DNA of 64,000 bases from Candidatus Yonathbacteria bacterium (GCA_013334825.1 JAAXWR010000002.1:155009-219008); one strand, 5' to 3'. Shown: positions 1,541-43,817, counted from the stretch's first letter. Notes: generated by a model from the letters alone, not told the origin. Made by a program: numbers and translations.

Positions 1541-1686
1541 CCATTCTGTCAAGAGCAAAACGGTTCTATTGAAGCTTTGATTTGAACTTATTTTGATATT
1601 GGTAGTTACGTAGCTTTTTTCGGATAAAACATACAGCAGTGCATGTTTTATTCTCTTACCCCTCTGCGTTCGAATCCCTTCCTCTC
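1541..1686 (+). repeat. 146-bp direct repeat, copy 1. The second copy is at 3538-3683 and differs at only about 2 positions.
   Basis: Near-identical strings read directly from the sequence. Both copies end in CCCTCTGCGTTCGAATCCCTTCCTCTC, which matches the tRNA-Ser(GGA) T-arm and acceptor. Each copy lies immediately upstream of a different minus-strand gene start. Confidence 0.9.
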
Positions 1687-1835
1687 TCGCAACATATAAA
1701 TCGCCGGGCGAATTCTCGCCCGGCTCATTATGTTGCGGTGAGGCTCGGTCTAGAACCCAGCCATCCCAAGCAGTGTAAGGCTTCTTTGGCGAGTTTGCGA
1801 CTCGACGATTTTTTTGGGAAGACGGCCGCGATTAG

Positions 1836-2150
1836 TTAGAGCAATTGCCACAAAAGAGCAATTCCCAAGATTATCCCCGGCATAATATAATCTGCAGTAA
1901 ATCTCACTTTGTGACGGTCAAACTGAAATCCAAGTTTTTCAAGCACGTGCGCATAAAATGTCATTTCACGCCTCTGGGATTTAAATTGCCACTTCGTAAG
2001 AATGCAATCACCCACAAGCAATAATTGGAGATAGTAAAGAATTATACCGATCAGAATAAGCTCCCAAGGAAGCCAAAACGGTGAACTCCAAACAGCAATA
2101 ATCAGTAGAAGATGTGTCCAGAAGAGTATGCCGAAATCTTTATCATACAT
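1836..2150 (-). CDS. Small hydrophobic membrane protein of 104 aa.
   Basis: The ORF has two or three predicted hydrophobic helices. No motif was recognised. Confidence 0.4.
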   Translation of the reverse strand: MYDKDFGILFWTHLLLIIAVWSSPFWLPWELILIGIILYYLQLLLVGDCILTKWQFKSQRREMTFYAHVLEKLGFQFDRHKVRFTADYIMPGIILGIALLWQLL

Positions 2151-2512
2151 ATGTTTATTGTAACATACTCAATATTCTTAGAGCATCGGTTGCGTAACAT
2201 CGTCTCACGTTCCTGCGGAGAGGGAGGGGACACTCACTGCTCGGACTTCGCTCGCGGGTAGCTCGCTCGTCCTGTACTCGCGAAACCCACGGTTTCGCGG
2301 GCATCCCTGCCTACCGGCAGGCAGGCTTCACGGGTAACCAGCGTCTCCTCACAGGAGCAGTACACCTTTTGGATGAATCGTTCGGACAAGTCCTCCAATT
2401 CATCTCAAAAGGTCTTGCGAAAGCTCCAAGTGTTCGCTTTCTCACCCCGACCCCCTCCGCGTTCGAATCCCTTCCTCTCCTTATTCACTTCGTTCACTGA
2501 TTGTGGTAACTC

Positions 2513-2554
2513 AATAAAAAAAGAGGGTGGAAAGTTTGGTAACTTCCCACCCTC
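2513..2554 (-). terminator. Rho-independent terminator of the lipoprotein gene.
   Basis: Minus-strand hairpin GAGGGTGG..CCACCCTC followed by TTTTTTTATT, immediately downstream of the stop at 2575. Confidence 0.65.
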
Positions 2555-2574
2555 AGTTGAGAGAGTTTGCGCTC

Positions 2575-3450
2575 TCACTTTGGAATGACGAACTGCTGGC
2601 CGTCGGCGGTTTTCACAAGTTGATAACCATTGTCTACCTTCGACCACTTCTTGGTCACCTTACCGCGAAGTTCCGACAAGCGACCTTTTACGATGAGCGA
2701 GCCAGTACTCAATTGCGCGTTCCAAGCATCGCTGGTCTTCTCATACACCTCGCGTGGAACTTCGAGCGTGATGTCGTGGGTGTTCGCCGCGTTGCGGATG
2801 TGCTTCGTGAGGTCGAGCGTGAACGTGGAGTTCTCGACCCGAATATTCACGAAGTATCGGTTGAGCGACTGGCGATCCACGAACTGGTATTCCGCAAGCG
2901 GCTTTTCCAGAACGTAGGTTCGCGCAACACCAGCAAACGGAACGGTAAGCAGTTGGCGACCGCTGGAACGCAACTGTTGCATCGCTTCGTCGTACTGCTC
3001 CTTGTTGATTTCGGTCTGCGTTCCATTTCTGTCCGCCCAGAAGTACTGGCTTTCGATCTTCTTCTCTGTGGGACGCACGACGTACTCGGCGATCTCGTCA
3101 TTGAAGACAAAACCCCAACCGTCGCCCTTACTCGAGACCTCCTGTCCGATCTCATACTCGTTGAAGGTTTTTTCATCGACGATAAGGGTGCGCGACTCGG
3201 CGGCCATCGCGTTCTTCGCATGAGCCCAAAGGTCGAGAGTGAATTGCTCCTTCTCGAATTTGAGAGTTACGAGGAACAACTTCTCTTCTCGAAGCTCGGT
3301 TGCATTCGCGAGAACCGCGACCACATCCGGTTTCGGATTTTCTGCCGGAGCCGCAGCAACTTGCCGCGACTGTTGATTCGGTTGCTGATCGCACCCCGCA
3401 AAGAACGCGAGGGCAACAATCAAGGTAAATAGGCTGGCTGACTTTCTCAA
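2575..3450 (-). CDS. Lipoprotein of about 291 aa with an internal duplication of roughly 140 aa.
   Basis: A TTG start at 3450 sits 6 nt downstream of AAGGAGA. The signal peptide is LRKSASLFTLIVALAFFAGC and ends in a lipobox. The FTLDL..H..NA motif occurs twice. Confidence 0.6.
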   Translation of the reverse strand: MRKSASLFTLIVALAFFAGCDQQPNQQSRQVAAAPAENPKPDVVAVLANATELREEKLFLVTLKFEKEQFTLDLWAHAKNAMAAESRTLIVDEKTFNEYEIGQEVSSKGDGWGFVFNDEIAEYVVRPTEKKIESQYFWADRNGTQTEINKEQYDEAMQQLRSSGRQLLTVPFAGVARTYVLEKPLAEYQFVDRQSLNRYFVNIRVENSTFTLDLTKHIRNAANTHDITLEVPREVYEKTSDAWNAQLSTGSLIVKGRLSELRGKVTKKWSKVDNGYQLVKTADGQQFVIPK

Positions 3451-3537
3451 TAGTTTCTCCTTATCTTTCGTTGTGAATGTGCGGTTTTTTGAGGCAAAAT
3501 AGCTCAATGAATCATGTGATATCTTAATATATGAAAA

Positions 3538-3683
3538 CCTTTCTGTCAAGAGCAAAACGGTTCTATTGAAGCTTTGATTTGAACTTATTTTGATATTGGT
3601 AGTTACGTAGCTTTTTTCGGATAAAACATACAGCAGTACATGTTTTATTCTCTTACCCCTCTGCGTTCGAATCCCTTCCTCTC
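3538..3683 (+). repeat. 146-bp direct repeat, copy 2. It pairs with 1541-1686.
   Basis: Direct alignment. It is followed at 3662-3725 by an inverted repeat CGAATCCCTTCCTCTCC..GGAGAGGAAGGGATTCG with a 17-bp stem. Confidence 0.9.
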
Positions 3684-3790
3684 CTTATTCACTTCGTTCA
3701 TTGCGGAGAGGAAGGGATTCGCTCCTTACAGGAGCAGTGCAGGTTTCCCATTTTTTCGGAGCATAGCTCCTCAAAAATATGGGAGAACCT

Positions 3791-3886
3791 TTTCGAATCC
3801 CTTCCCGCAGGCAAAGCAGCTTGCCTGCTCTCTCCGCTCAACAAAAATCGCACCCCTCAAAGGGTGCGGATTTTTGTACGAGCGGG
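3791..3886 (+). repeat. Ser-tRNA-3'-like structured element, copy 2 of 3.
   Basis: TTCGAATCCCTTCC, then hairpin GCAGGCAAAGCAGCTTGCCTGC, then CTCTCCGC and AACAAAAATC, then hairpin GCACCCCTCAAAGGGTGC, then GGATTTTTG. The blocks are collinear with 35625-35714. Confidence 0.7.
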
Positions 3887-4973: not shown

Positions 4974-5063
4974 TGGCGGAGAGGAAGGGATTCGAACCCT
5001 TGGTACCGTTACCGATACACCACCTTTCCAGGGTGGCCCATTCGACCGCTCTGGCACCTCTCC
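4974..5063 (-). tRNA. tRNA-Ser (anticodon GGA) with a long variable arm. CCA is encoded.
   Basis: Manual fold: acceptor GGAGAGG/CCTCTCC, anticodon loop CUGGAAA, T-loop TTCGAAT, discriminator G. Confidence 0.85.
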
Positions 5064-8006: not shown

Positions 8007-8100
8007 AAACACCTCGCTCCACCAAGGGCGAGTTTTTGTTTCCTGCGTATTTGATGAGAGGGTAATCATTCTTAATGATGAAAAATATTTTTATAGTGTA

Positions 8101-8220
8101 AAGTTTATCGTTTATAGCTTTCGTCTCCATATTTCATATTTCTATTTTCTTATTTCATCGTCTATCGTTTATAGTTTTCGTCTTCATATTTCATACTTCT
8201 TAATTCGCCTTTCGTATTCT
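8101..8220 (+). repeat. Tandem repeat of about 60 bp, two copies (TATCGTTTATAGYTTTCGTCTYCATATTTCATAYTTCT..), inside a CT-rich motif block.
   Basis: Read directly. Related CGTTTATAGTTTTCGTCTTCATATTTC strings occur at 39680-39706, and in reverse complement near 48300-48345. Confidence 0.7.
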
Positions 8221-8326
8221 TGCTTCATGCTTCGTGATTCGTGCTTCGAGTATCCGTCCCTATAACCCATCTCCTCTAACTCCTTTCCTACACGAATGCG
8301 TATTTTCTGTTATACTTTCTTGTATT

Positions 8327-20637: not shown

Positions 20638-21030
20638 ATGGATATCAAGAAACACAATAAGCGTCGTATTAGTGCCAATACTGTTTTTTCTTCACATATG
20701 GCACTTGGTGGACTTCTTCTTGCGGTAGCGTTTTTAGGAAATGCGACATGGAACGTGTATCGAACATATCATGATGCTCGTGTGCGCGAATTGAGAACAA
20801 AAGATGAACTCTCTGCTTTGGTTTTACGAGAAGAGCATTTGGTGGGGGAGATCGCACGTCTCAATACAGAAGATGGACGTGAGGAAGAAATGCGTGAACG
20901 TTTTGGTGTAGGAAAAGAAGGGGAACATCTCATTGTCATTACAAAGAAAGAATCAGAAAATACTGATGGAAATCATCCGATTGTTCCGTGGTATGGAGTG
21001 ATTTGGAATCGTTTGTTTAAAAAAGAATAA
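20638..21030 (+). CDS. Septum formation initiator, FtsB/DivIC-like. The call is tentative.
   Basis: N-terminal transmembrane segment, a coiled coil (LREEHLVGEIARL) and a C-terminal ERFGVGKEGEHLIVI motif. Confidence 0.45.
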   Translation: MDIKKHNKRRISANTVFSSHMALGGLLLAVAFLGNATWNVYRTYHDARVRELRTKDELSALVLREEHLVGEIARLNTEDGREEEMRERFGVGKEGEHLIVITKKESENTDGNHPIVPWYGVIWNRLFKKE

Positions 21031-21079
21031 ATCGGTGTGTATGGACGGATAAAAGATGTCCGTGTACAATGACACGCAC

Positions 21080-21150
21080 GCGGAATTAGTTAAGTGGCAT
21101 AACATTAGCTTCCCAAGCTGAGATCGCGGGTCCGATTCCCGCATTCCGCA
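21080..21150 (+). tRNA. tRNA-Gly (anticodon CCC).
   Basis: Manual fold: acceptor GCGGAAT/ATTCCGC, D-stem GTTA/TAAC, anticodon loop UUCCCAA, T-arm GCGGG-TCCGATT-CCCGC. CCA is not encoded. Confidence 0.8.
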
Positions 21151-21478
21151 CAAAGGACGCCCTTCAGGGGCGTCCTTTGTGCGGAATGAGCGAGCAAACT
21201 GCTTTGCTCGCGTTGGGAATCGGACGGCTCGGCGATGTTGTCGCTTGCGACGACCGCGAGCCGCGTCCAGGAGTACTTAGCGGATTGCGAATAAGTGAAG
21301 CAATACGCTTAGTAACTCCGGGACGATTCCCGCATTCCGCACCCAGCCCTACTTTCATAACAAACGCATGTACACTACATGCGTTTGTTATGTGATTATT
21401 AGAAATATATATTATTGAGTGTTTAATGAAAGTAGAGCTGGGTGCGGAATGAGCGAGCAAACTGCTTGATATACATTA
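21151..21478 (+). repeat. Composite element downstream of tRNA-Gly. It contains a terminator hairpin, an inverted copy of the tRNA 3' end split by a CTGC-loop hairpin, an H2 module, a direct copy of the 3' end, a roughly 105-bp CCCAGCC hairpin and a second truncated inverted copy.
   Basis: 21180-21227 reads TGCGGAATG[AGCGAGCAAACTGCTTTGCTCGC]GTTGGGAATCGGACGG. 21319-21341 reads CGGGACGATTCCCGCATTCCGCA. 21342-21447 reads CCCAGCCCTACTTTCAT..ATGAAAGTAGAGCTGGG. The 24-bp string TGCGGAATGAGCGAGCAAACTGCT occurs at both 21180 and 21447. Confidence 0.8.
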
Positions 21479-22633
21479 TTATCCGCAAATTGCGGCTCGT
21501 ATTGCTGGTACGACAGCGGGGTCCATTACTGTCGGCATGATATGTTCGGGTGTTGGTTCTGTTACAACAGACGCAATTGCTTCGGCGGTGGCGATTTTCA
21601 CCTCAGTCATATGTTCAGAGAGAACACATTTTTTTGGAATCGTGTTTGCGTCAAGAAGAGCACGAAAGATACCGGGAAAAACGAGCGCATTGTTGATTTG
21701 ATTAGGAAAATCAGAGCGTCCAGTACCGATAATAAATGCACCAGCTTCTTTTGCGTCGTCAGGAAGTATTTCAGGCTCAGGATTTGCCATAGCAAAGATG
21801 ATAGGACGTGGTGCCATGGAACGAACCATTTCCTGTGAAAGAAGTCCTGGCCCAGATACACCGACAAAAGCATCTACACCAATGAGTGCGTCTGAGAGAC
21901 TTCCTGTTATTCCGCGCGGATTTGAAATGTTCGCTATGTGTTCTTTATATACATTCATCCCATCGCGTCCAAGTGCAACAATACCTTTGCTATCGACAAG
22001 AATGATATCAGATATACCGTATGCGGAAAAAAGTCGTGCGATAGCGATACCTGCCGCACCTGCACCGTTCACGACAATCTTTAAGGTACGTATATCTCCT
22101 CCGCGAACTTTTGTTGCATTGATGAGCGCTGCAAGTGCGACGATTGCCGTTCCGTCCTGATCGTCATGAAAGACGGGGATAGAAAGTTCTTTTTCTAAAC
22201 GGTCAAGAATATCAAAACATCGTGGCGCGGAAATATCTTCCAAATTAATTCCCCCAAACGAAGGTGCTATCTGTTTGCAAAAACGGACAATCTCTTCTGC
22301 GTCTTGAGTAGCGATACATAATGGGACAGCGTCAACGTCGGCAAGTGTTTTGAATATCATTGCCTTTCCTTCCATGACTGGCAACCCTGCTTCAGGACCG
22401 ATATTTCCAAGACCAAGGATAGCAGAGCCATCGGAGACGATTGCAATGGTATTGCTTTTATTGGTGAGAGAGTTTACTTGTTCAGGATGCGCCACAATTT
22501 CCATGCATACTTTTCCAACACCAGGTGTGTATGCGAGTGCAAGATCCACAGCATCGTTGAGTGGAGCTTTAGGTTTAATTTCTATTTTACCGCGATGTGC
22601 GCGATGATAATCAAGTGGGTCCATAGATGTCAA
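21479..22633 (-). CDS. NAD(P)-dependent malic enzyme (short form).
   Basis: Malic-enzyme N-terminal region (LAYTPGVGKVCMEI) and a Rossmann motif VVNGAGAAGIAIARL. Confidence 0.85.
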   Translation of the reverse strand: MTSMDPLDYHRAHRGKIEIKPKAPLNDAVDLALAYTPGVGKVCMEIVAHPEQVNSLTNKSNTIAIVSDGSAILGLGNIGPEAGLPVMEGKAMIFKTLADVDAVPLCIATQDAEEIVRFCKQIAPSFGGINLEDISAPRCFDILDRLEKELSIPVFHDDQDGTAIVALAALINATKVRGGDIRTLKIVVNGAGAAGIAIARLFSAYGISDIILVDSKGIVALGRDGMNVYKEHIANISNPRGITGSLSDALIGVDAFVGVSGPGLLSQEMVRSMAPRPIIFAMANPEPEILPDDAKEAGAFIIGTGRSDFPNQINNALVFPGIFRALLDANTIPKKCVLSEHMTEVKIATAEAIASVVTEPTPEHIMPTVMDPAVVPAIRAAICG

Positions 22634-22724
22634 AAAAGGATATAATGCAATGCATTATACCCCGGGGAGGTTCCCTGCGCTAGTGTGACTTTCATATATT
22701 CTGTAAGGACGATATACTTACCTT

Positions 22725-23915
22725 ATGGAAAAAGCACCTCGCCGAAATGAAAAAGCACATGCAGATGAAAACTCATTTTCTAATGGTGTACCTGATAATG
22801 TCCCTGAAGTAACTTCTCTGAAAGGTGGTAAGGAAGGTGGTGATGTAGCTTCTCATGAAAAAGCAAAGCATCTTCTTATGGAGATCGAATCAACGAAAGG
22901 AGTTTCTCCTTCGGGGGGACAAGAGACTTCTGTGTCAGAAAAAAAAGAAGAGCATGAATCTGTCCCCAATCCTTCACGGAGACGTTTTTTGAGACAAGTA
23001 TTTACATATGGAGCAGGAGCGACGATTGTGTCGATTCCATTTTTGGGAAGACTCTTTAATAAGGGTGATGTGGTATCAGAGAAAGATAAAAAGGAAGTGA
23101 ACGATGTAAATCGTCTTGCTCGTGAACTTGATGCTGTTGAGAAAGATGATAGTATTGAGCGACGTGAGCGTTTTATAAAACGAGTGAGAGAGACAGGAGA
23201 ATTCATTGTAAGGGACGAAGATACCATACTTGATACGGATGTGATGGAAGCATTGGAAGAGTATTGGCAAAAACAATTCATGACACGACGTGATGGACGT
23301 GAAGATGTTCCTTTTGCGTGGGAAGATATACTTCTTGCCAGAGAACGTATGCGCCCGTATATGCCGTCTATGCGGAGAGCATTTAAAAATCAAGGACTTT
23401 CTGATGCACTTGTAGGACTCGCTATTGTGGAGTCATGGGGAGATAGGTTTGCGCGCTCTCACGCGGGAGCAAAAGGACTGTATCAGTTTACGGAGAGTAC
23501 TGGGCGTATGTATGGACTTGAAACAGAGGCAGATTTTTTTGATCCTATAACATCATCTCTTGCTGCGGCGAAGTATATTGCCACGATGTATGATGTAAAT
23601 GGGGGGAGTCTTCCACTCGCTCTTCACGAATATAATGGGGGATACGCGCTGGCATATAGAATGAACCACACAGATAAAAAAGCTGACTATGTGGGATTTT
23701 TGAAAGAAATGGAGTATGTTATTAATGAAAAGAGACATGCATTTGGAGATATAGATGAACGGACATTTCTTGAAGAAGTGAAGGACGTTAATGGTTCTTT
23801 GCATGGGCTCTTTGAGAATGTTGTGTATCCTGCAAAAGTATTTGCGGCGGAATACGCGATGAGACAAGCTGATAAAGAAGAATTGGAAAAGGAGACGCTT
23901 CTTGCTCGTCGCTGA
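22725..23915 (+). CDS. Lytic transglycosylase (SLT) domain protein with a twin-arginine-like signal.
   Basis: SRRRFLRQV then a hydrophobic stretch. The SLT core is VESWGDRFARSHAGAKGLYQFTESTG..AAAKYI. Confidence 0.65.
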   Translation: MEKAPRRNEKAHADENSFSNGVPDNVPEVTSLKGGKEGGDVASHEKAKHLLMEIESTKGVSPSGGQETSVSEKKEEHESVPNPSRRRFLRQVFTYGAGATIVSIPFLGRLFNKGDVVSEKDKKEVNDVNRLARELDAVEKDDSIERRERFIKRVRETGEFIVRDEDTILDTDVMEALEEYWQKQFMTRRDGREDVPFAWEDILLARERMRPYMPSMRRAFKNQGLSDALVGLAIVESWGDRFARSHAGAKGLYQFTESTGRMYGLETEADFFDPITSSLAAAKYIATMYDVNGGSLPLALHEYNGGYALAYRMNHTDKKADYVGFLKEMEYVINEKRHAFGDIDERTFLEEVKDVNGSLHGLFENVVYPAKVFAAEYAMRQADKEELEKETLLARR

Positions 23916-24029
23916 TACCCCCATGGGGTATGTTGCGCATCATGTTTCATGTGGTATACTAGAATCTATTAATCGTTTTGGATGATATATCGCATTTGCG
24001 ATATGCCAGCCATAGTTATTTTTTTACAC

Positions 24030-24269
24030 ATGGAACAAAAGACTGTTATTGTATATTCCACGCCAACATGTGCGTTTTGCCACATGGCAAAGGAATATTT
24101 TACTCAGAACAATGTCGCGTTTACCGATCACAATGTCGCGACCGATTTGGAAAAGCGTCAGGAGATGCTTGAACTCACGGGACAGATGGGTGTTCCTGTT
24201 ATCAAAATCGGTGATGATATTGTCATTGGTTTTGATCAAGGACACATTGCTGAATTGCTCGGACTGTAA
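24030..24269 (+). CDS. Glutaredoxin-like protein (NrdH-like).
   Basis: A 79-aa thioredoxin-fold protein carrying a CAFC redox motif and the GVPVIKIGD signature. Confidence 0.75.
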   Translation: MEQKTVIVYSTPTCAFCHMAKEYFTQNNVAFTDHNVATDLEKRQEMLELTGQMGVPVIKIGDDIVIGFDQGHIAELLGL

Positions 24270-24334
24270 TCTTGAGAAAAAATATGCTTTAATGAAAGCG
24301 CCGTATCCTTTTATAGGGTCGGCGCTTTCATCAT

Positions 24335-24406
24335 CCCTTCGTAGCTCAATGGATAGAGCAACTCCGTCCTAAGGAGAAGATGTAGGTTCGACTCCCGCCG
24401 AAGGGA
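24335..24406 (+). tRNA. tRNA-Arg (anticodon CCT).
   Basis: Manual fold: acceptor CCCTTCG/CGAAGGG, D-stem GCTC/GAGC, anticodon loop GUCCUAA, T-loop TTCGACT. There is one mismatch in the anticodon stem and one in the T-stem. Confidence 0.6.
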
Positions 24407-24670
24407 CATATTGAAAAACACCCTTTAGGGTGTTTTTCAATATGTCCCTTCGGAGTAAGCCGACTGCTCGGCTTACGTCGGGAGTCGAACTGAGCACCAC
24501 TTTTGCTGTTGCAAAAGTGGTGCTCGACGTCCAGCGGTACTTATGGAAATGCGAGTGCCCGAAGCATTTCCATTAGTAACCGCGGGACGATTCCTGCCGA
24601 GGGGTTTTTGATTGTGAGCGTATCCCGCGAACCTTTCCGAGCAGTGAGTGTTCCTGCCGAGGGGACAGGC
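24407..24670 (+). repeat. Composite element downstream of tRNA-Arg. It contains a 21-bp-stem hairpin, an inverted 3' copy split by a CTGC-loop hairpin, and H1, H2 and degenerate direct 3' copies.
   Basis: GGGACATATTGAAAAACACCC..GGGTGTTTTTCAATATGTCCC, then TTCGG[AGTAAGCCGACTGCTCGGCTTACGT]CGGGAGTCGAAC. H1 is GAGCACCACTTTTGC..GCAAAAGTGGTGCTC. H2 is GTCCAGCGGTACTTAT..TTAGTAACC followed by GCGGGACGATTCCTGCCGAGGGG. Confidence 0.8.
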
Positions 24671-24823
24671 GAGTTTTAAGTTTATAGTTTCAAGAGCACG
24701 GAAAATATATTTTTTAGTGTTTTTTAACTTATAATTTGAAGTTCACGACTTTTGTAAAATTAAAGAATGAGATATAGTCCATTCTTATTTCCATATACAA
24801 GTATTCATGATACCATATAGTCC

Positions 24824-25174
24824 ATGATGGACATGGAGCTTAAACACAAGCTCGACGAGCTTGAAACAGTTACTCATGAAAATAATGAGATATTGCGTGG
24901 TATACAACGTTCCGCGCGCCTGCAACGCATCTTGTCTATCATTAAATGGGTGATGATTGTCATTTTTGCCATGGCGGGGTATTATGTCCTTCAGCCATTC
25001 GTGGATAGCGCCAGAAAGACGTATGAGGCGCTTCAAAGTGGTGTTATGGAGGTAAAGGAAGTACAGAGCACATTGCCAGATTTGACGCTCTTATTTCAAT
25101 TATTAGGGTCGCAAAAGCCCTCAAAACAAGACGCTGAAAAGAGTGCAGAAATGACAGTGCCTGTTACAGAATAG
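24824..25174 (+). CDS. Hypothetical small membrane protein of 116 aa.
   Basis: ORF with a central hydrophobic helix (IIKWVMIVIFAMAGYYVL). No motif recognised. Confidence 0.35.
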   Translation: MMDMELKHKLDELETVTHENNEILRGIQRSARLQRILSIIKWVMIVIFAMAGYYVLQPFVDSARKTYEALQSGVMEVKEVQSTLPDLTLLFQLLGSQKPSKQDAEKSAEMTVPVTE

Positions 25175-25191
25175 AAGTATCATACCAATTT

Positions 25192-25264
25192 GCCGAGGTA
25201 GCTCAGTTGGTAGAGCATACGCCTGAAGAGCGTGTGGTCGGCGGTTCGAGCCCGCCCCTCGGCA
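25192..25264 (+). tRNA. tRNA-Phe (anticodon GAA).
   Basis: Manual fold: perfect acceptor GCCGAGG/CCTCGGC, D-arm GCTCAGTTGGTAGAGC, anticodon loop CUGAAGA, T-loop TTCGAGC. Confidence 0.9.
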
Positions 25265-25400
25265 CCCAGCCCTACATTCATAATAAACGCATGTACACCA
25301 CGTGCGTTTATTTTGTGATTGTTGCATTTTTACATATTGCCACCTTTCATGAATGTAGGGCTGGGTGCCGAGGGAGGAAGGCAACTGCTTGCCCACAGTT
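25265..25400 (+). repeat. Composite element downstream of tRNA-Phe. It is a roughly 100-bp CCCAGCC hairpin module followed by an inverted acceptor copy and a CTGC-loop hairpin.
   Basis: CCCAGCCCTACATTCATAATAAACGCATGTACACCACGTGCGTTTATT..CATGAATGTAGGGCTGGG, then GTGCCGAGGGAGGAAGGCAACTGCTTGCCC. Confidence 0.8.
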
Positions 25401-25454
25401 TTATTCCTCAGGAATATGTTTGTAGAAATATGAAGATTTATGTAATTTCGAATC

Positions 25455-25492
25455 TGTATTGACAATGTATATACATTGTATATACTTATGAT
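25455..25492 (+). promoter_or_regulatory. Putative promoter and operator of the dinJ-yafQ operon.
   Basis: TTGACA, then the 18-bp perfect palindrome ACAATGTATATACATTGT, then TATACT, about 10 nt ahead of the ATG. Confidence 0.5.
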
Positions 25493-25747
25493 ATGACTAC
25501 GCTTAATATAAGAATTGAAGAAAAAATTAAAGTGAAGGCAAATAAAACATTATCTTCACTTGGGCTTGATATGTCTACGGCAGTTAAGATATTTTTGAAT
25601 CAAGTTATTATAGAAGACGGTTTACCGTTTACCCCTACGAATAATAAACTTATGCTAAAAGAACGTTGGGATAAACAAACTGCTCATGCATTGAAGTATG
25701 GAAAAAATTACAAAAATGGTAAAGATGTATTGTCTGACATAGTGTAA
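25493..25747 (+). CDS. dinJ: Type II antitoxin, DinJ/RelB family.
   Basis: MTTLNIRIEEKIKVKANKTLSSLGLDMSTAVKIFLNQVIIEDGLPF matches the DinJ RHH N-terminus. Confidence 0.8.
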   Translation: MTTLNIRIEEKIKVKANKTLSSLGLDMSTAVKIFLNQVIIEDGLPFTPTNNKLMLKERWDKQTAHALKYGKNYKNGKDVLSDIV

Positions 25748-26040: not shown

Positions 26041-26149
26041 ATACGAAAATAGTCTCTCTCTATTGAGAGATATTTAGTAAAGTTTCCATACACACACTGG
26101 AGGGCGTAAGCCCTCCAGTGTGTGTATAATTACTTCGTGCTTCCCGTCT

Positions 26150-26240
26150 TGTTTCGTATGTTCCCTAGCACTGTGCATTGTGCACCACGTAGGATGCACA
26201 GCACGCCACGTGGGGTGCAGGGCAATCGTACTATTCGTAC
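26150..26240. repeat. Palindromic element of about 90 bp rich in CACGTGG, copy A (MITE-like).
   Basis: CCCTAGCACTGTGCATTGTGCACCACGTAGGATGCACAGCACGCCACGTGGGGTGCAGGG flanked by GTTTCGTATG / GTACTATTCGTAC. This is the reverse complement of the copies at 39583-39666 and 41563-41652. Confidence 0.75.
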
Positions 26241-26309
26241 TTCGTAACCCTTAATTCTTGCTTCGTGATTCCAGTATCCGTCCCTATCACCCATCACCTC
26301 TCTCCTAAT

Positions 26310-26798
26310 TTAATTCCCCTTTACCTTTACACGAGAGTGTTTATCACGGTCTATTTTAGGCATGCGGATTGTGAGTAGTCCGTTGCGTTCAGTTGCTTCA
26401 GCAGCATCAGGGTCAATTTCTACCGAGAGGGGAATGACACGTGAGAATGAACCCCAATACAGTTCCCGATACATAAAGCCATCATTTTCGATAATACCCG
26501 AATCGTCTTCGCGGGTACCTTTGATGGTTACCTCGTTACGACTGATGGAAACTTCAAGGTCACTCGGATCAACACCCGCAATCATTGATTTGATAACCAA
26601 ATCATCACCTTGTTCATACATATCAACAGTGAGTTCTCCTTCCTCGTCTTCTTCTTCCCACATATCGGCAGCTGTTTCTTCGCGCTCTGTGGGCGATTCG
26701 TCTTCATCAGCGAATATGGTGTCGCGTTCATCTTCATCACGTGGCGTTACCGCGCCTGCGATGCGTCCGAACAGAGATGTGCGTTTTCGTTTCATCAT
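26310..26798 (-). CDS. Hsp20/alpha-crystallin family small heat-shock protein.
   Basis: Alpha-crystallin domain motifs (RELYWGSFSRVIPLSVEIDPD, GLLTIRMPK). Acidic N-terminal region. Confidence 0.85.
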   Translation of the reverse strand: MMKRKRTSLFGRIAGAVTPRDEDERDTIFADEDESPTEREETAADMWEEEDEEGELTVDMYEQGDDLVIKSMIAGVDPSDLEVSISRNEVTIKGTREDDSGIIENDGFMYRELYWGSFSRVIPLSVEIDPDAAEATERNGLLTIRMPKIDRDKHSRVKVKGN

Positions 26799-35488: not shown

Positions 35489-35624
35489 ATAAAACTATGA
35501 TACCATGTCGATTGATTTTTAGGGAGGGATTTGTCCTGGAGTTACTAATTGAAATGTTCTATGTATTCTCATTTTAATAAGTACTCCTGGACGCGGCTCG
35601 CATTTCTCGCGAGCGAGAAATATG

Positions 35625-35714
35625 CTCCGCCGTTCGAATCCCTCCTCGCAGGCAAAGCAGTTTGCCTGCTCTCTCCGCCCAACAAAAATCGCACCCTAAA
35701 GGTGCGGATTTTTG
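35625..35714 (+). repeat. Ser-tRNA-3'-like structured element, copy 3 of 3.
   Basis: CGTTCGAATCCCTCC, then hairpin TCGCAGGCAAAGCAGTTTGCCTGC, then TCTCTCCGCC and CAACAAAAATC, then GCACCCTAAAGGTGC and GGATTTTTG. It is preceded by the palindrome GCATTTCTCGCGAGCGAGAAATATGC. Confidence 0.7.
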
Positions 35715-35787: not shown

Positions 35788-36618
35788 CTAAACTGAGACA
35801 TGTAGCTCGGAGGTTTGTAAAATTTCTTGGTGTAATTTTTCTATTTTCTCCTGATCCTCTTTCTGTCGTATTGCAGAATAAAATTCTGGATCAAATTTTC
35901 TGATTGCGTCTTTCAAGGTGTCTGGAGTTTCAATAACCACATTAGGATCCTTTCGCTGCTCCATTGTTCTTATTTGAGAAGCTACTTCATCCCAGAGTTT
36001 TTCGGCGACATCTTTGTTGGGCATAGTAGCAAGTTTCTCAATAAACACTTTTCTATACTTCTCAATCCCCGAGCCTATACGTGCATGAAACATTCCAGAG
36101 ATTCCAAATTGAATTGTCCTAAAATCAGGTTCTTGTAGCAGTAGTGTTTCTTTTTCTTTATCTGAAGCTTCTCCGTATTTTTCATTCAACATTTGCTTGT
36201 ATTCCTCAGTTTTTTGATAGAAACTAAGTTGATCCTCAATCTCTTTTTCAATTATTGCAGTACTCAGAGGTTGAACTCGCAGATCCTCGTAATATTTTGA
36301 ATTTTCATTATTTTCCGCTCCAAGTTTCTCCATTACTTTTTGTCGGTATGAATCAATTGCAATGTTAGTACTCAATAGATTTTCGGCATCAACATACAAG
36401 AATGAATCTACATCACTTTCAGATCTTGCTTGTTTCCCTTTAATCATTGATCCATAAATCGTTGCTCCTAAAACTTCGGGATTTTCTTTTTGAAGGTCTT
36501 TGATTGTAGCTCGAAAAGTGTCTAGACGAGCTTTTGCTTCATCTTGAATCGGCAATTCAAAACGCTTCTCCTTTATTTTTTCTTCAGTTTGATTATTTAG
36601 AGAGGCTTGCTCTTTCAT
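35788..36618 (-). CDS. Nucleotidyltransferase-fold protein (Pol-beta superfamily; KNTase- or CD-NTase-like), otherwise hypothetical.
   Basis: GATIYGSMIKGKQARSESDVDSFLYVD matches the GS..x9-13..[DE]h[DE]h NTase signature. The rest of the protein is K/E-rich. Confidence 0.5.
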   Translation of the reverse strand: MKEQASLNNQTEEKIKEKRFELPIQDEAKARLDTFRATIKDLQKENPEVLGATIYGSMIKGKQARSESDVDSFLYVDAENLLSTNIAIDSYRQKVMEKLGAENNENSKYYEDLRVQPLSTAIIEKEIEDQLSFYQKTEEYKQMLNEKYGEASDKEKETLLLQEPDFRTIQFGISGMFHARIGSGIEKYRKVFIEKLATMPNKDVAEKLWDEVASQIRTMEQRKDPNVVIETPDTLKDAIRKFDPEFYSAIRQKEDQEKIEKLHQEILQTSELHVSV

Positions 36619-36656
36619 ACACCTATTCTAGCTTAAATGCTCGTATTTATCTACTC

Positions 36657-36687
36657 GGGTCTGCCGATACTAAGTGCTTAATGCGGG
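36657..36687 (+). repeat. 31-bp direct repeat GGGTCTGCCGATACTAAGTNCTTAATGCGG, copy 1. Copy 2 at 37813-37843 abuts the tRNA-Ser(CGA) 3' end.
   Basis: Read directly. The two copies bracket the 36777-37742 gene. Confidence 0.8.
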
Positions 36688-36776
36688 CAACTCGGGTTAA
36701 GTACCAAGTGTATGAGACACAATAAGGCTGGTTTGGAAGAATTTCAGAGGCTAATCCGAGGTATGTGGGTCGGAGT

Positions 36777-37742
36777 CTATAATATCGACTCGAAGTATTC
36801 TTTAAACTCCTCAGAAGAAGCTGTTTGGTATTTTTCATAAAGGCTTTTAATTTCCTCATCCGAGAAAACAGATATAACGTCATGTGTTATTTTTAGGTTT
36901 GGTAGCTCTTTCTTTAGGAGAAGATAGAGGGCTATTTTAGGCAACAAATATTTTGACTCCTCCATTCCCTTAAAATGAATATTGCGTTCTGTTGCCATTC
37001 GAGGATCAAAGTTGTATGGCATGCTTGAGAATTCTCGACTTACATCATTCCCTGATTTTTTCATCTCGTGATATAGGCGAGTGTGAAAACCTCCCATTGA
37101 AAAAAGTATCTTCAAGTTTTCTTTTTTCTGGAGATCAGGATTCTGCTTCAATGTTTCAGCCAAAGCTTCTGGAAGTTTTTCTAAAATATAATCTTCGCGA
37201 GCCTTCTGCATGTCGGACTCAAATTTTGATACATTACCGATTCTTCGAAGCGTTTCCTCATAGGGCAAGGACTTATTTATGAGGTTGTTATAAGCACCAT
37301 TGGATGCATACAGACCCATAAGGTTTTTAAAGACGACATTATCATTTGGAACGTCTACAAGCATTACTTTCTTCTCTGATTTATACAAACCCTCGAGTAA
37401 CGAAGCATAGAAGTCTTTCCACAAAAATGGCTTTCCATTCTGCTTTTCCATATCCATCGCCTGTTCAGGGGTCAGAGTACCATTTGATACTTCGTTGAAA
37501 ATATCGAGTCGAGCAGAATCCCAACCGGCGTTTTCCTGAATGAGAATATCTGCGTTTTTTAGGCGTTCACCCACCGCTTGTCCGTTTTCTGCTGTTGCGT
37601 GTTTGTGAAAGAAGAAATTGGTTTCAATTTTGGGCACGTTTTCAATACCTTTTTCTCTCAGCAAAGAACCTAAATCATTCTGAGCCGAAGATTTTTCTAA
37701 GTCTAAATTATTGCTTTTTAACCCAAAATTTTGTCCTTCCAT
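36777..37742 (-). CDS. Hypothetical protein of 321 aa, inside a repeat-bounded islet.
   Basis: ORF with no recognised motif. It is flanked by the 31-bp direct repeats. Confidence 0.45.
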   Translation of the reverse strand: MEGQNFGLKSNNLDLEKSSAQNDLGSLLREKGIENVPKIETNFFFHKHATAENGQAVGERLKNADILIQENAGWDSARLDIFNEVSNGTLTPEQAMDMEKQNGKPFLWKDFYASLLEGLYKSEKKVMLVDVPNDNVVFKNLMGLYASNGAYNNLINKSLPYEETLRRIGNVSKFESDMQKAREDYILEKLPEALAETLKQNPDLQKKENLKILFSMGGFHTRLYHEMKKSGNDVSREFSSMPYNFDPRMATERNIHFKGMEESKYLLPKIALYLLLKKELPNLKITHDVISVFSDEEIKSLYEKYQTASSEEFKEYFESIL

Positions 37743-37927: not shown

Positions 37928-38186
37928 AATATCTTAACTACACTCTTTCGCTATGATACATGAAAGGGTGCCTTTCCGCGACATCCCCGTTCTTTGCTGC
38001 GCAAAGAGCGGGGTGCGCGGACCCGCCCAGCTCTTTCAAAAGGGCTGGACGGGCGACCACAGAGCCACCTCTCCATTTCTTCTGCGTCTTTCTGTATTCG
38101 TTCCGCGAAGTTCTGCGTAATTCGTATATCCTAGCACCTTTTGCCATTTTTTCAAAACATGATACAATGCATCGGTCAAATAAATA

Positions 38187-38349
38187 CATGGCCCTATCGT
38201 TCCCGGTGGAGAAACCAAGTAAAACTTTGTTTCTCCACCGAGGACCCGCGATATTGCAACCAAATCAAAGATTTGGGCAATATCGGGGCTAACGGTTTCA
38301 ATTGACACTGAACACCAAAAGATTGAAAAATAATTAAAAACTAGTTCAT
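38187..38349 (+). repeat. Duplication of 15 bp spanning the tRNA-Glu 5' end, flanking a roughly 140-bp hairpin-containing insert.
   Basis: CATGGCCCTATCGT at 38187-38201 and again at 38347-38361. The intervening sequence contains GGTGGAGAAAC..GTTTCTCCACC and GCGATATTGC..GCAATATCG hairpins. Confidence 0.65.
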
Positions 38350-38421
38350 GGCCCTATCGTCTAACGGTTAGGACATCGCCCTTTCACGGCGGTAATCGGG
38401 GTTCGATTCCCCGTAGGGTCA
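38350..38421 (+). tRNA. tRNA-Glu (anticodon TTC).
   Basis: Manual fold: acceptor GGCCCTA/TAGGGTC with one G-U pair, D-arm GTCTAACGGTTAGGAC, anticodon loop CUUUCAC, T-arm CGGGG-TTCGATT-CCCCG. Confidence 0.85.
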
Positions 38422-38819
38422 CAAAACGCCAGCGCCGAAGTATATCTTCGGCGCTGTTGCGTTTTGTAGACCCTACGGGGAATCGAACGGCGCAAGGCGG
38501 TATACAAGATGCGCAAGATTGCGCATGCTTGTCGCTGCGCCGCGTCCAGCGGTACTTATCAGAATGCGAGCATTGGCGAAGCATTATGATTAGTAACCGC
38601 GGGACGATTCCCCGTAGTGCCTTTCGTGAGAATCGAACCGAGCACCACTTTTGCAATGGCAAAAGTGGTGCTCGATGTCCAACAGTATCCAGCCCCACTT
38701 TCATAATAAACACATGTGCTGTGATAGATTTTTTATCCGAGTTATGAGTATTGTTTATGAATGAAGCCTCTCATGAAAGTGGAGCTGGATAACCGTGGGG
38801 ACGATTCCCCGTAGAGTCA
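38422..38819 (+). repeat. Composite element downstream of tRNA-Glu. It contains a long hairpin, a contiguous inverted copy of the tRNA 3' end, a GGCGCAAGGCGGTATACAAG box, H2, a direct 3' copy, H1, a roughly 100-bp CCAGCC hairpin and a second direct 3' copy.
   Basis: 38467-38490 TAGACCCTACGGGGAATCGAACGG is the reverse complement of the tRNA's 3' end. 38599-38621 reads GCGGGACGATTCCCCGTAGTGCC. 38797-38819 reads GGGGACGATTCCCCGTAGAGTCA. The modules align with those of the Gly, Arg and Val loci. Confidence 0.8.
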
Positions 38820-41652: not shown

Positions 41653-41853
41653 ACTGAATACAAATAATCATGTTGGTGAGTTTGTGTTCGTATGTTCGTA
41701 CTCGTTCATACTTCGTAACCCCTCATTCCTGTCCGTCTCTATAAACCTATCACCTCTAACCTCTTTCCTATTTTCGTCCACTCTTATCACCTCTAACCTA
41801 TTTCCTGCCCCCTGCTTCTTGCTTCGTGATTCTCATGTTATGATATTCTCCAT

Positions 41854-43407: not shown

Positions 43408-43500
43408 TGTTCGAGCCCCGTGTCACCACGCAAATACAAACAATCGCAAGGGCATGCCTTGCGATTGTGTATTTGTGGGCGACACAGGACTCGTCCCGCG
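43408..43500 (+). repeat. Direct repeat of about 93 bp, copy 1. It duplicates the downstream hairpin, the inverted T-arm copy and the last 18 nt of tRNA-Val. Copy 2 is at 43676-43768.
   Basis: The two copies are identical over roughly 90 nt (CGTTCGAGCCCCGTGTCACCACGCAAATACAAACAATCGCAAGGGCATGCCTTGCGATTGTGTATTTGTGGGCGACACAGGACTCG). They bracket a CCAGC hairpin module at 43503-43606. Confidence 0.9.
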
Positions 43501-43743
43501 GTTATCCAGCTCCACTTTCATAATAAACACATACGCCATGATAGATTTTTTATCCGAGACGTAGGTATTGTTTATAGATGAAGTCTCTCATGAAAGTGGG
43601 GCTGGATACCGTTGGACGCGGCGCGGCGACAAGCACTCGCGAGTAAACTCGCTCGTCTTGTATACCGCCTTGCGCCGTTCGAGCCCCGTGTCACCACGCA
43701 AATACAAACAATCGCAAGGGCATGCCTTGCGATTGTGTATTTG

Positions 43744-43817
43744 TGGGCGACACAGGACTCGAACCTGTGACCTTCACAATGTCAATGTGACGCTCTAACC
43801 AGCTGAGCTAGCCGCCC
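43744..43817 (-). tRNA. tRNA-Val (anticodon GAC).
   Basis: Manual fold: acceptor GGGCGGC/GTCGCCC, D-arm GCTCAGCTGGTTAGAGC, anticodon stem-loop TCACA-UUGACAU-TGTGA, T-arm ACAGG-TTCGAGT-CCTGT. Confidence 0.9.

Follow-up and report, generated by a model that had tools for sequence, protein, structure and literature searches.

A 64,000-nt stretch from a Candidatus Yonathbacteria bacterium (GCA_013334825.1 JAAXWR010000002.1:155009-219008), hereafter the window, is given as one strand, 5′ to 3′, and its tRNA genes were located with ARAGORN and Rfam. It is an ordinary chromosomal segment encoding RNR, MurJ, LepA, LeuRS, TsaD, ProRS, FtsZ/FtsA, MreB, and others; its ProRS shows 100% identity to a protein assigned to Candidatus Yonathbacteria. 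Both searches found seven tRNA genes (Gly, Arg, Phe, Glu, Val, and two Ser), and the subject of this analysis is a family of short composite units that follow these genes and carry inverted and direct copies of the tRNA's own 3′ end. A reading of the sequence alone had described such composites, built from one set of modules lettered (a) to (g), downstream of the Gly, Arg, Phe, Glu, and Val genes. All five are present where that reading had placed them, and additional copies were found at both tRNA-Ser loci.

In the sense of the tRNA, a unit has the order tRNA, T, A′, P2, a GC dinucleotide, P3, and A. These parts are (i) T, a hairpin that differs between loci, in many cases carries an A-tract and a T-tract, and is terminator-like at Glu and Val; (ii) A′, the reverse complement of tRNA positions 53-73, which always ends in ..TCGAAC and often contains an inserted 9-bp hairpin with a CUGC loop (P1a); (iii) P2, whose position is occupied in certain units by the modules previously called c-box or H1; (iv) P3, the former H2, a hairpin that makes up the conserved core together with P2 and closes it with GGGAC; and (v) A, a direct copy of tRNA positions 57-73. 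The resulting cassettes are non-coding, about 110-270 bp long with a core of 110-185 nt, contain no enzyme gene of their own, and always share the orientation of the tRNA. Their flanking inverted and direct copies correspond to the local tRNA and differ at every locus. At Val, A-T-A′ recurs as a perfect direct repeat of 85 nt.

Every module named in the sequence-only reading was recovered, and the shared motifs were far more frequent in the window than in its dinucleotide-preserving shuffles, which confirms the original observation. For CCAGCCCCACTTTCAT (at most 3 mismatches), 10 matches were obtained versus 0.4 expected; for GCGTCCAGCGGTA, five versus 0.8; for GGCGCAAGGCGGTATACAAG, two exact matches versus 0; and for CGGGACGATTCC (at most 2 mismatches), 10 versus 3.9, three of them exact. 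Four exact arms of H1 are present in the window. Folds of the composites are also much more stable than those of shuffled sequence (z = -17.7 and -15.9). Parts of the initial description had to be revised. Within CGGGACGATTCC, which had been called constant, CGGGAC is indeed so, but GATTCC is the T-loop and T-stem sequence of the tRNA itself and reads GAGTCC at Val. Nor do all five loci carry the same set of modules, as Phe has only (g) and a truncated inverted copy.

Module (g) turned out to be a separate element rather than a member of the shared set, being found in three contexts and in both orientations. At Gly and Phe, it takes the position of T; at Glu and Val, it stands in place of the P3 tip, in opposite orientations. 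It is a near-palindromic hairpin of about 100 nt (CCAGCYCCACTTTCAT..ATGAAAGTGGRGCTGG) with an internal terminator-like hairpin, and its copies lie at 21342-21442, 25265-25365, 38689-38788, and 43506-43605 of the window and, outside of it, in the relatives L161 (5330-5560), L043, and L164 (6060-6100). Overall, (g) substitutes for the tips of T, P2, or P3 hairpins in either orientation and looks like an independent miniature inverted-repeat transposable element (MITE) nested within the cassettes.

Junction and turnover of the units

Of 63 units, 49 match the tRNA from precisely the base that follows C56, with GGTTC/GAxTCC in the tRNA and GGGAC/GAxTCC in the unit (the slash marking the junction). 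About half of the direct copies stop at most a few bases from the 3′ terminus of the tRNA; the others are shorter or span the whole A-T-A′ palindrome, so that repeat length ranges from 4 to 86 nt. The tRNA genes are intact despite the units, and a direct repeat of the tRNA 3′ segment is found at the far end of the unit, as for an insertion into the tRNA gene whose 3′ part is restored by the inserted element. Since A′ covers positions 53-73, it spans the 56/57 junction.

The two copies of the tRNA end are not preserved equally. In 38 units, A′ was nearer to the complement of the resident tRNA than to that of the downstream A; two units showed the opposite. Watson-Crick pairing between A′ and the tRNA reached 91-96% at positions 57-65 and 80-87% at positions 66-72. 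The downstream A is well kept over its first 7-9 nt only, and about half of the units have lost its acceptor part. The helix that is maintained is therefore the one formed by the tRNA end and A′ across T, and the downstream A behaves like a decaying displaced copy. The inverted copies had been judged unfit for a simple integration model; they proved to be the best-kept part of the unit and pair with the 3′ end of the tRNA itself, not with the downstream copy. We also considered a mimic of a tRNA minihelix closed by A′ and A. This idea is weakened because the downstream acceptor part, often lost, is the decaying partner and A′ fits the tRNA better; in addition, the A′:A helix, where it is long, passes the discriminator base. 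A derivation of A from mature tRNA found no support, as the copies lack CCA unless it is encoded in the gene.

Orthologous regions of relatives were fetched via ProRS and a protein with an SLT domain (ProRS identity to the window: 94% for L156 and 82% for L159). The sequence-only reading had proposed a search for empty sites in related strains, and such sites were found: the same position can be empty or differently occupied. At tRNA-Glu(ttc), the window has two tandem units, L156 has one unit with different T, P2, and P3 and with P1a, and L159 is empty, containing neither a unit nor A′. At tRNA-Val(gac), the arrangement A-T-A′-core-A-(T)-A′ occurs in the window, L156, and L159; T and A′ are common to the window and L156, but the cores are different. 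At tRNA-Phe, L043 and L161 have the full core, the window lacks some 150 nt, core included, between direct repeats of 24 nt, and L164 shows A-(g)-A′ without a core. At tRNA-Gly, L161 contains two units with different T, P2, and P3. At tRNA-Ser(cga), the gene of L156 is immediately followed by two units that differ in core type, whereas in the window two open reading frames (ORFs) and then a recombinant orphan unit follow. Several truncations end in the loop of P1a.

The tRNA-Arg(cct) locus, the most informative case, documents the exchange of a tRNA 3′ end. In L161, the intact tRNA ends in GATTCCTGCCGAGGGGACA, whereas the window and L164 have GACTCCCGCCGAAGGGACA, followed by a perfectly matching A′. 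The version GATTCCTGCCGAGGGG(ACA) occurs in the window and L164 only as downstream copies, the last of which abuts the flank common with L161. This pattern is the expected product of an insertion at 56/57 by a cassette carrying its own tRNA 3′ end. The sequence-only reading had taken the direct copy for the acceptor 3′ strand of the respective tRNA, which holds at Gly and Glu; at Arg, the copy GATTCCTGCCGAGGGG is instead the allelic 3′ end of a relative. For the same reason, four apparently compensatory G-U changes in the Arg copy of the window are no evidence of selection at the RNA level, because this copy is the allelic old tRNA end.

Distribution and folding of the family

The wider family was gathered with two sequence patterns, one a gapped P3 and the other anchored at the A′/P2 and P2/P3 junctions. 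In a one-genome-per-species collection, the P3 pattern gave 35 matches at 33 loci, all of them in metagenome-assembled genomes (MAGs) of Patescibacteria and distributed over at least four lineages (Saccharibacteria, Paceibacterota/Parcubacteria, Woesebacteria, and Campbellbacteria). With the four matches in the window counted, a tRNA end on the same strand lies 105-171 nt upstream in 24 of 39 cases, comprising 15 tRNA identities, and in these the bases after GGGAC repeat the 3′ part of the upstream tRNA. The junction-anchored pattern yielded at least 120 metagenome stretches. About 10 of these are chance matches in GC-rich coding DNA; the others, situated 47-92 nt downstream of tRNAs with almost all identities represented, include covarying P3 subfamilies. 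In total, units were detected at more than 100 loci, and all named genomes are Patescibacteria MAGs. A family extending across the candidate phyla radiation (CPR), with a conserved, covarying, and strand-specific two-hairpin core, goes beyond what had been read from the window.

Neither pattern had a match in 2.9 million viral contigs (IMG/VR). With Rfam 15 at the gathering threshold, only the seven tRNAs of the window reached the threshold, so that none of the covariance models for known families (tRNA-like, tmRNA, Y RNA, rtT, ribozymes, group I intron) matched the units, and a permissive scan of 21000-25500 gave matches at chance level only (Intron_gpI with 17 bits versus a cut-off of 50, outside the core). 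Similar to the guide of a group I intron, A′ spans 56/57, but the core consists of two hairpins only. The literature searched on tRNA-linked or structured-RNA elements in CPR/Patescibacteria yielded no description of such cassettes; it led only to group I introns located in anticodon loops (PMC13011429), which are a different element. They thus appear to be undescribed so far, as the sequence-only reading had assumed for their architecture.

RNAalifold, applied to 31 units, predicted both P2 and P3, and 14 of 24 pairs show compensatory changes. Among 27 distinct P1a stems, 96% of positions were paired (59% with shuffled partners), and the distal stem of P3 was paired to 81% (52% in the control). 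In 61 of 68 distinct cores, the tRNA-sense strand folds better than its complement (mean difference -4.9 kcal/mol, p = 7e-11). In the same 68 cores, 130 G-U pairs were counted on the tRNA-sense strand versus 75 on the other, though G-U pairs make up only about 5% of all pairs. After an optimization restricted to Watson-Crick pairs, isolated mismatches in the outer helix were of the G-U type in 27 and of the A-C type in 10 cases (p = 0.008); the corresponding count of 1x1 mismatches on the cores (five G-U, eight A-C) was uninformative. Purine-rich loops (GAA, CUUG, GNRA) occur on the sense strand only. The motif GCGAAGC was found in 21 of the 68 cores and never on the complement; GCGNAGC is known as an extraordinarily stable DNA mini-hairpin, typical of priming sites in single-stranded DNA and much less stable as RNA (PMC13037366). 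Folded as DNA, the Val cassette forms three adjacent hairpins, with A-T-A′ as one hairpin beside P2 and P3 (z = -11.3), although its opposite strand folds nearly as well. Together, the data show a structure that is single-stranded and of sense polarity, without telling DNA from RNA.

Origin of the cassettes

No integrase, transposase, or reverse transcriptase was found in a Pfam scan of 39 ORFs of the window. All-against-all clustering of about 1000 ORFs around some 70 units revealed no family at more than eight loci, the top neighbor families being PilM, RbfA, RuvX, L19, a pseudouridine synthase, and LepA. [quoted passage not shown] The lack of an integrase remarked upon in the sequence-only reading thus extends from the window to the vicinity of more than 100 related loci.

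To account for the anatomy of the units, their fixed junction and turnover, the replaced 3′ end, the missing linked recombinase, and the strand-specific conserved structure, we lean, with some reserve, towards integrative cassettes that are not autonomous, have the tRNA T-loop as their target, and are mobilized in trans. The cassette [A-T-A′-P2-P3], specific to Patescibacteria, would be inserted between T-loop positions 56 and 57. Its own A would complete the tRNA gene, and the original 3′ end would be displaced downstream, where it decays. The cassettes form tandem stacks, disappear again, and swap modules. As no recombinase is linked, the enzyme must in this case act in trans; it would be encoded at another place of the genome and recognize the universal T-arm sequence together with the P3/A junction. 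The universality of the T-arm sequence would enable one family to use every tRNA. Because the structure is strand-specific, the cassettes probably act as a folded single strand, presumably of tRNA-sense polarity, and the inverted copy makes sense if this is the active form: A-T-A′ may rebuild a duplex target half-site that stacks on P3, with only the continuous strand being exchanged across GGGAC/GA, in the manner of attP(+) of CTXφ and attC of integrons. The integrative interpretation of the sequence-only reading is thus partly supported and agrees with the fixed junction, the turnover, and the 3′-end exchange at Arg.

Several observations weigh against this reading. No recombinase was identified, and neither a circular nor a single-stranded form was seen; among the 120 ORFs within 2.5 kb of units, Pfam families with at least two matches were housekeeping only, a criterion by which a lone rare integrase could be missed. 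A single P3 subtype is shared by Glu, Ser, Thr, Phe, and Pro loci, yet landing in a non-cognate tRNA should destroy that tRNA. Unrelated cores (E, E2, M2, E3) share the same flanks, which could mean a generic process driven by the target. Collection by two patterns fixes part of the apparent conservation. Finally, a transcribed RNA would account equally well for the asymmetry between strands, for the purine-rich loops, and for units located within tRNA operons (L041, L072).

The cassettes share features with several known systems but differ from each of them in others. Like phages, ICEs, and islands that use a tyrosine integrase at the tRNA T-loop, they insert into a tRNA gene, provide a replacement 3′ end, displace a direct repeat, and accumulate in tandem; they differ in having 110-270 bp without any gene, an inverted target copy, a conserved hairpin core, and nearly every tRNA species as target. 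The trailer of Escherichia coli tyrT contains 178-bp repeats, each with the 3′ end of tRNA-Tyr, that give rise to rtT RNA. It resembles the cassettes in its repeated copies of a tRNA 3′ end downstream of the gene, in a transcribed trailer; in contrast, tyrT is a single enterobacterial locus with no inverted copy, no core shared across tRNAs, and no known mobility, and the Rfam model of rtT did not match. MITEs and repetitive extragenic palindromic (REP) sequences are likewise short, non-coding, hairpin-forming, multi-copy, and non-autonomous. The cassettes, however, have neither constant terminal inverted repeats nor a target duplication of fixed length: their 'inverted repeat' is the target itself and depends on the tRNA. 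A classification as MITEs was therefore rejected, given flanking copies that follow the local tRNA and the variable repeat length. An insertion of the IS200/IS605 or IS91 type, a retron, a T-box, a K-turn RNP, and a rolling-hairpin replicon were considered from the anatomy only and set aside.

Two further classes lack an enzyme of their own. Cis-mobilizable elements (CIMEs) are att-flanked derivatives of ICEs or IMEs that have no integrase and are moved in trans (PMC5704250). They share with the cassettes the non-autonomous state, att-type repeats at a tRNA gene, and tandem stacking, but are kilobase-sized decayed ICEs beside a related autonomous element, whereas the cassettes have a compact conserved structure in common. 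Host Xer enzymes integrate folded single-stranded DNA of CTXφ (PMC3442271), and both attP(+) of CTXφ and attC of integrons are recombination sites made of folded single-stranded DNA (PMC3442271, PMC4246890). With these integrative mobile elements exploiting Xer (IMEX) and with attC, the cassettes share the lack of an own recombinase and imperfect hairpins whose shape is conserved while the sequence varies; a strand-specific duplex site folded from inverted target-like sequences may be a further parallel. Unlike them, they target T-loop position 56/57 rather than dif or attI and are associated with no phage or integron genes.

A bolder proposal, which we put forward tentatively and regard as rather doubtful, is a new class of minimal mobile element. 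A single strand of about 200 nt (DNA that is taken up or excised, possibly RNA) would use its own inverted copy as guide or half-site, enter the cognate T-loop by means of housekeeping enzymes only, and re-template the A and A′ arms when changing to another tRNA.

Alternatively, the units may primarily be a trailer or pseudo-tRNA, a structured RNA made in one transcript with the tRNA, their dynamics at the DNA level being secondary. The core would be closed by a helix of the T-stem/acceptor copy and could be released by tRNA-processing enzymes or regulate tRNA maturation via A′. The constant orientation, units between tRNA genes without a terminator (L041, L072, L031), covariation, the folding advantage and G-U excess of the sense strand, its GNRA, CUUG, and GAA loops, and the lasting complementarity of A′ to the tRNA 3′ end all agree with such an RNA. 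It is nevertheless an unlikely explanation. Units are rapidly gained, lost, and replaced at orthologous loci, empty sites included, and a terminator-like T hairpin often stands between tRNA and unit. The A′:A closing helix has 7-9 bp in half of the units and, where long, passes the discriminator base, unlike a tRNA mimic. G-U pairs are rare, no Rfam family matches, and unrelated cores lie within the same flanks.

Repeats of a tRNA 3′ end are also the classic signature of integrase-carrying islands and prophages, and the units might be their scars, i.e. att remnants after deletion of the coding part; small gene cargos in some arrays (window 35788-37742 and 1840-3555; L035 with an HTH_17 protein) would fit. 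We attach little probability to this origin: more than 100 independent units share one compact, covarying core of 110-185 nt across distant CPR lineages, none lies beside an integrase or matches a viral contig, and random deletion would not repeatedly give an identical minimal architecture.

Equally improbable are hairpin-driven replication errors that need no dedicated machinery, in which fold-back synthesis at the terminator makes A′ and template switching via the universal T-loop sequence takes up the core of a different locus before going back to the tRNA: A′ indeed abuts the T hairpin without a gap in every case and stops at the T-loop, repeats can take in the whole A-T-A′ palindrome, and modules are exchanged exactly at conserved junctions with different cores in the same flanks, but three precise switches would be needed hundreds of times over, and conservation of the core across CPR classes, strand specificity, and the exchange of the tRNA-Arg 3′ end with allelic sequence would be left unexplained.

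Patescibacteria represent a large share of bacterial diversity and have tiny genomes, whose mobile DNA is little known. If the integrative interpretation is correct, gene-less cassettes in tRNA genes across the whole radiation would explain assembly breaks at tRNA loci, serve as a marker of recent recombination between strains, and point to a trans-acting recombinase that recognizes the universal T-arm. For organisms in which manipulation is very difficult, genetic tools would also gain a natural and harmless place of integration together with a minimal integration substrate. Should the core instead act as RNA, it would be a widespread new structured RNA tied to tRNA expression. Two Logan contigs of this organism (L001 and L002) end or start at P3 of the Arg unit and at the start of tRNA-Gly, consistent with repeated modules breaking assemblies at tRNA loci.

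Feature coordinates and further observations

Table 1. tRNA genes and unit components located in the 64,000-nt window.
Feature	Position	Strand	Remark
tRNA-Gly(ccc) gene	21080-21150 (tRNA search: 21080-21151)	+	
A, tRNA-Gly positions 57-73	21134-21150	+	proposed cassette-borne 3′ end completing the tRNA
T hairpin abutting tRNA-Gly (former module a)	21151-21179	+	
A′, inverted tRNA-Gly positions 53-73	21180-21225	+	split by P1a 21189-21211, loop CTGC
P2 core hairpin, Gly	21226-21262	+	
P3 hairpin, Gly (former H2)	21265-21324	+	GTCCAG..GTACTTA..TTAGTAAC..GGGAC
A, displaced direct copy of tRNA-Gly positions 57-73	21325-21341	+	
(g), ~100-nt near-palindromic hairpin in T position, Gly	21342-21442	+	
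Truncated second A′, Gly	21443-21467	+	acceptor part and 5′ half of P1a
tRNA-Arg(cct) gene	24335-24407	+	
T hairpin after tRNA-Arg(cct)	24408-24443	+	
A′ with P1a, Arg	24444-24490	+	exact complement of resident tRNA-Arg 3′ end
H1 hairpin in P2 position, Arg	24492-24525	+	
P3 hairpin, Arg	24529-24588	+	
A*, 'old' tRNA-Arg 3′ end GATTCCTGCCGAGGGG	24589-24604	+	equals 3′ end of the intact tRNA in L161
Fragment of second cassette type (M2, ..CCGAGCAGTGAGTG) and second old-type A, Arg	24605-24665	+	then flank conserved with L161
tRNA-Phe gene	25191-25264 (tRNA search: 25191-25268)	+	
(g) hairpin directly after tRNA-Phe	25265-25365	+	
Truncated A′, Phe	25366-25393	+	acceptor part and P1a half; core of orthologous L043 locus missing
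tRNA-Glu(ttc) gene	38350-38421 (tRNA search: 38350-38422)	+	
T hairpin after tRNA-Glu(ttc)	38422-38466	+	bidirectional terminator-like
A′ without P1a, Glu	38467-38488	+	
P2, c-box variant (GGCGCAAGGCGGTATACAAG..), Glu	38489-38541	+	
P3 hairpin, Glu	38544-38605	+	
A*, first direct copy, Glu	38606-38621	+	diverged
Second tandem unit, Glu	38622-38802	+	A′ remnant 38622-38638; H1 38640-38673; P3 with (g) tip 38677-38802
A, second direct copy of tRNA-Glu positions 57-73	38803-38819	+	
tRNA-Val gene	43743-43817	-	
85-nt repeat, first copy, Val	43677-43760	-	positions 57-73 43744-43760; T 43699-43743; A′ 43677-43698
Core, Val	43493-43676	-	P2 c-box variant 43620-43676; P3 with (g) tip 43493-43617
Second A-T-A′ copy, Val	43409-43492	-	then terminator
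Orphan Ser-type unit (T, A′ with P1a, P2, P3, degenerate A)	35520-35713	-	2.2 kb downstream of tRNA-Ser(cga), two ORFs between
Ser(gga)-type unit whose core is of another type, E2 (T, A′ with P1a, E2, A)	3702-3877	-	E2 3721-3791
Ser(gga)-type unit whose core is of a third type, M2 (230 nt), between A′ and A	2214-2482	-	M2 2231-2460
A′, then start of core type E3	3639-3686	-	leads into promoter-like site and ORF 2575-3555(-); second copy 1642-1688

Other cassette types form an array at 1640-3880(-), downstream of tRNA-Ser(gga) (4974-5063), and are bounded by the same inverted and direct tRNA-Ser copies. The two E3 copies in this array are 95% identical and lead to promoter-like sites and to functionally unassigned ORFs (2575-3555 and 565-1449). 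Between tRNA-Ser(cga) and the orphan unit, the segment 35788-37742(-) holds two ORFs, one nucleotidyltransferase-like and one unknown; at this position in L156, cassettes directly follow the tRNA. Possibly, the segment is a gene-carrying cassette. In L035 (1896-7060, -), two units come after tRNA-Asn, then cargo of about 4.5 kb (an excisionase-like HTH_17 protein, NUDIX, a histidine phosphatase, and unknowns), and then a third core ending in the tRNA-Asn 3′ end; the whole looks like a larger island with the same sites at its borders.

We also noted partial copies of tRNA 5′ ends, derived from tRNA-Glu (38190-38297, +) and tRNA-Ser(cga) (37966-38074, -) and lying upstream of the actual genes at a distance of about 50-160 nt. 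Hairpin modules interrupt or follow each of them, which suggests that insertions of a second class act at the 5′ (D-loop) side.

Selfish elements apart from the cassettes are frequent in the relatives' genomes. In L157 (7429-11176) and L153 (3-3125), these comprise ORFs for homing endonucleases of the GIY-YIG and LAGLIDADG types and a UvrD helicase with an intein. In the window, seven tandem 84-nt repeats (28 codons each; 60088-60867) lie inside an ORF of 838 amino acids (60010-62526). Short intergenic repeat families (GTCCCTATAACCCATCACCTCTAACC.. and the 14-nt periodic GAATCAAGAAGCAAG) recur at gene boundaries, among them 8097-8290, 26125-26314, 41733-41837, 58603-58685, and 62604-62702.

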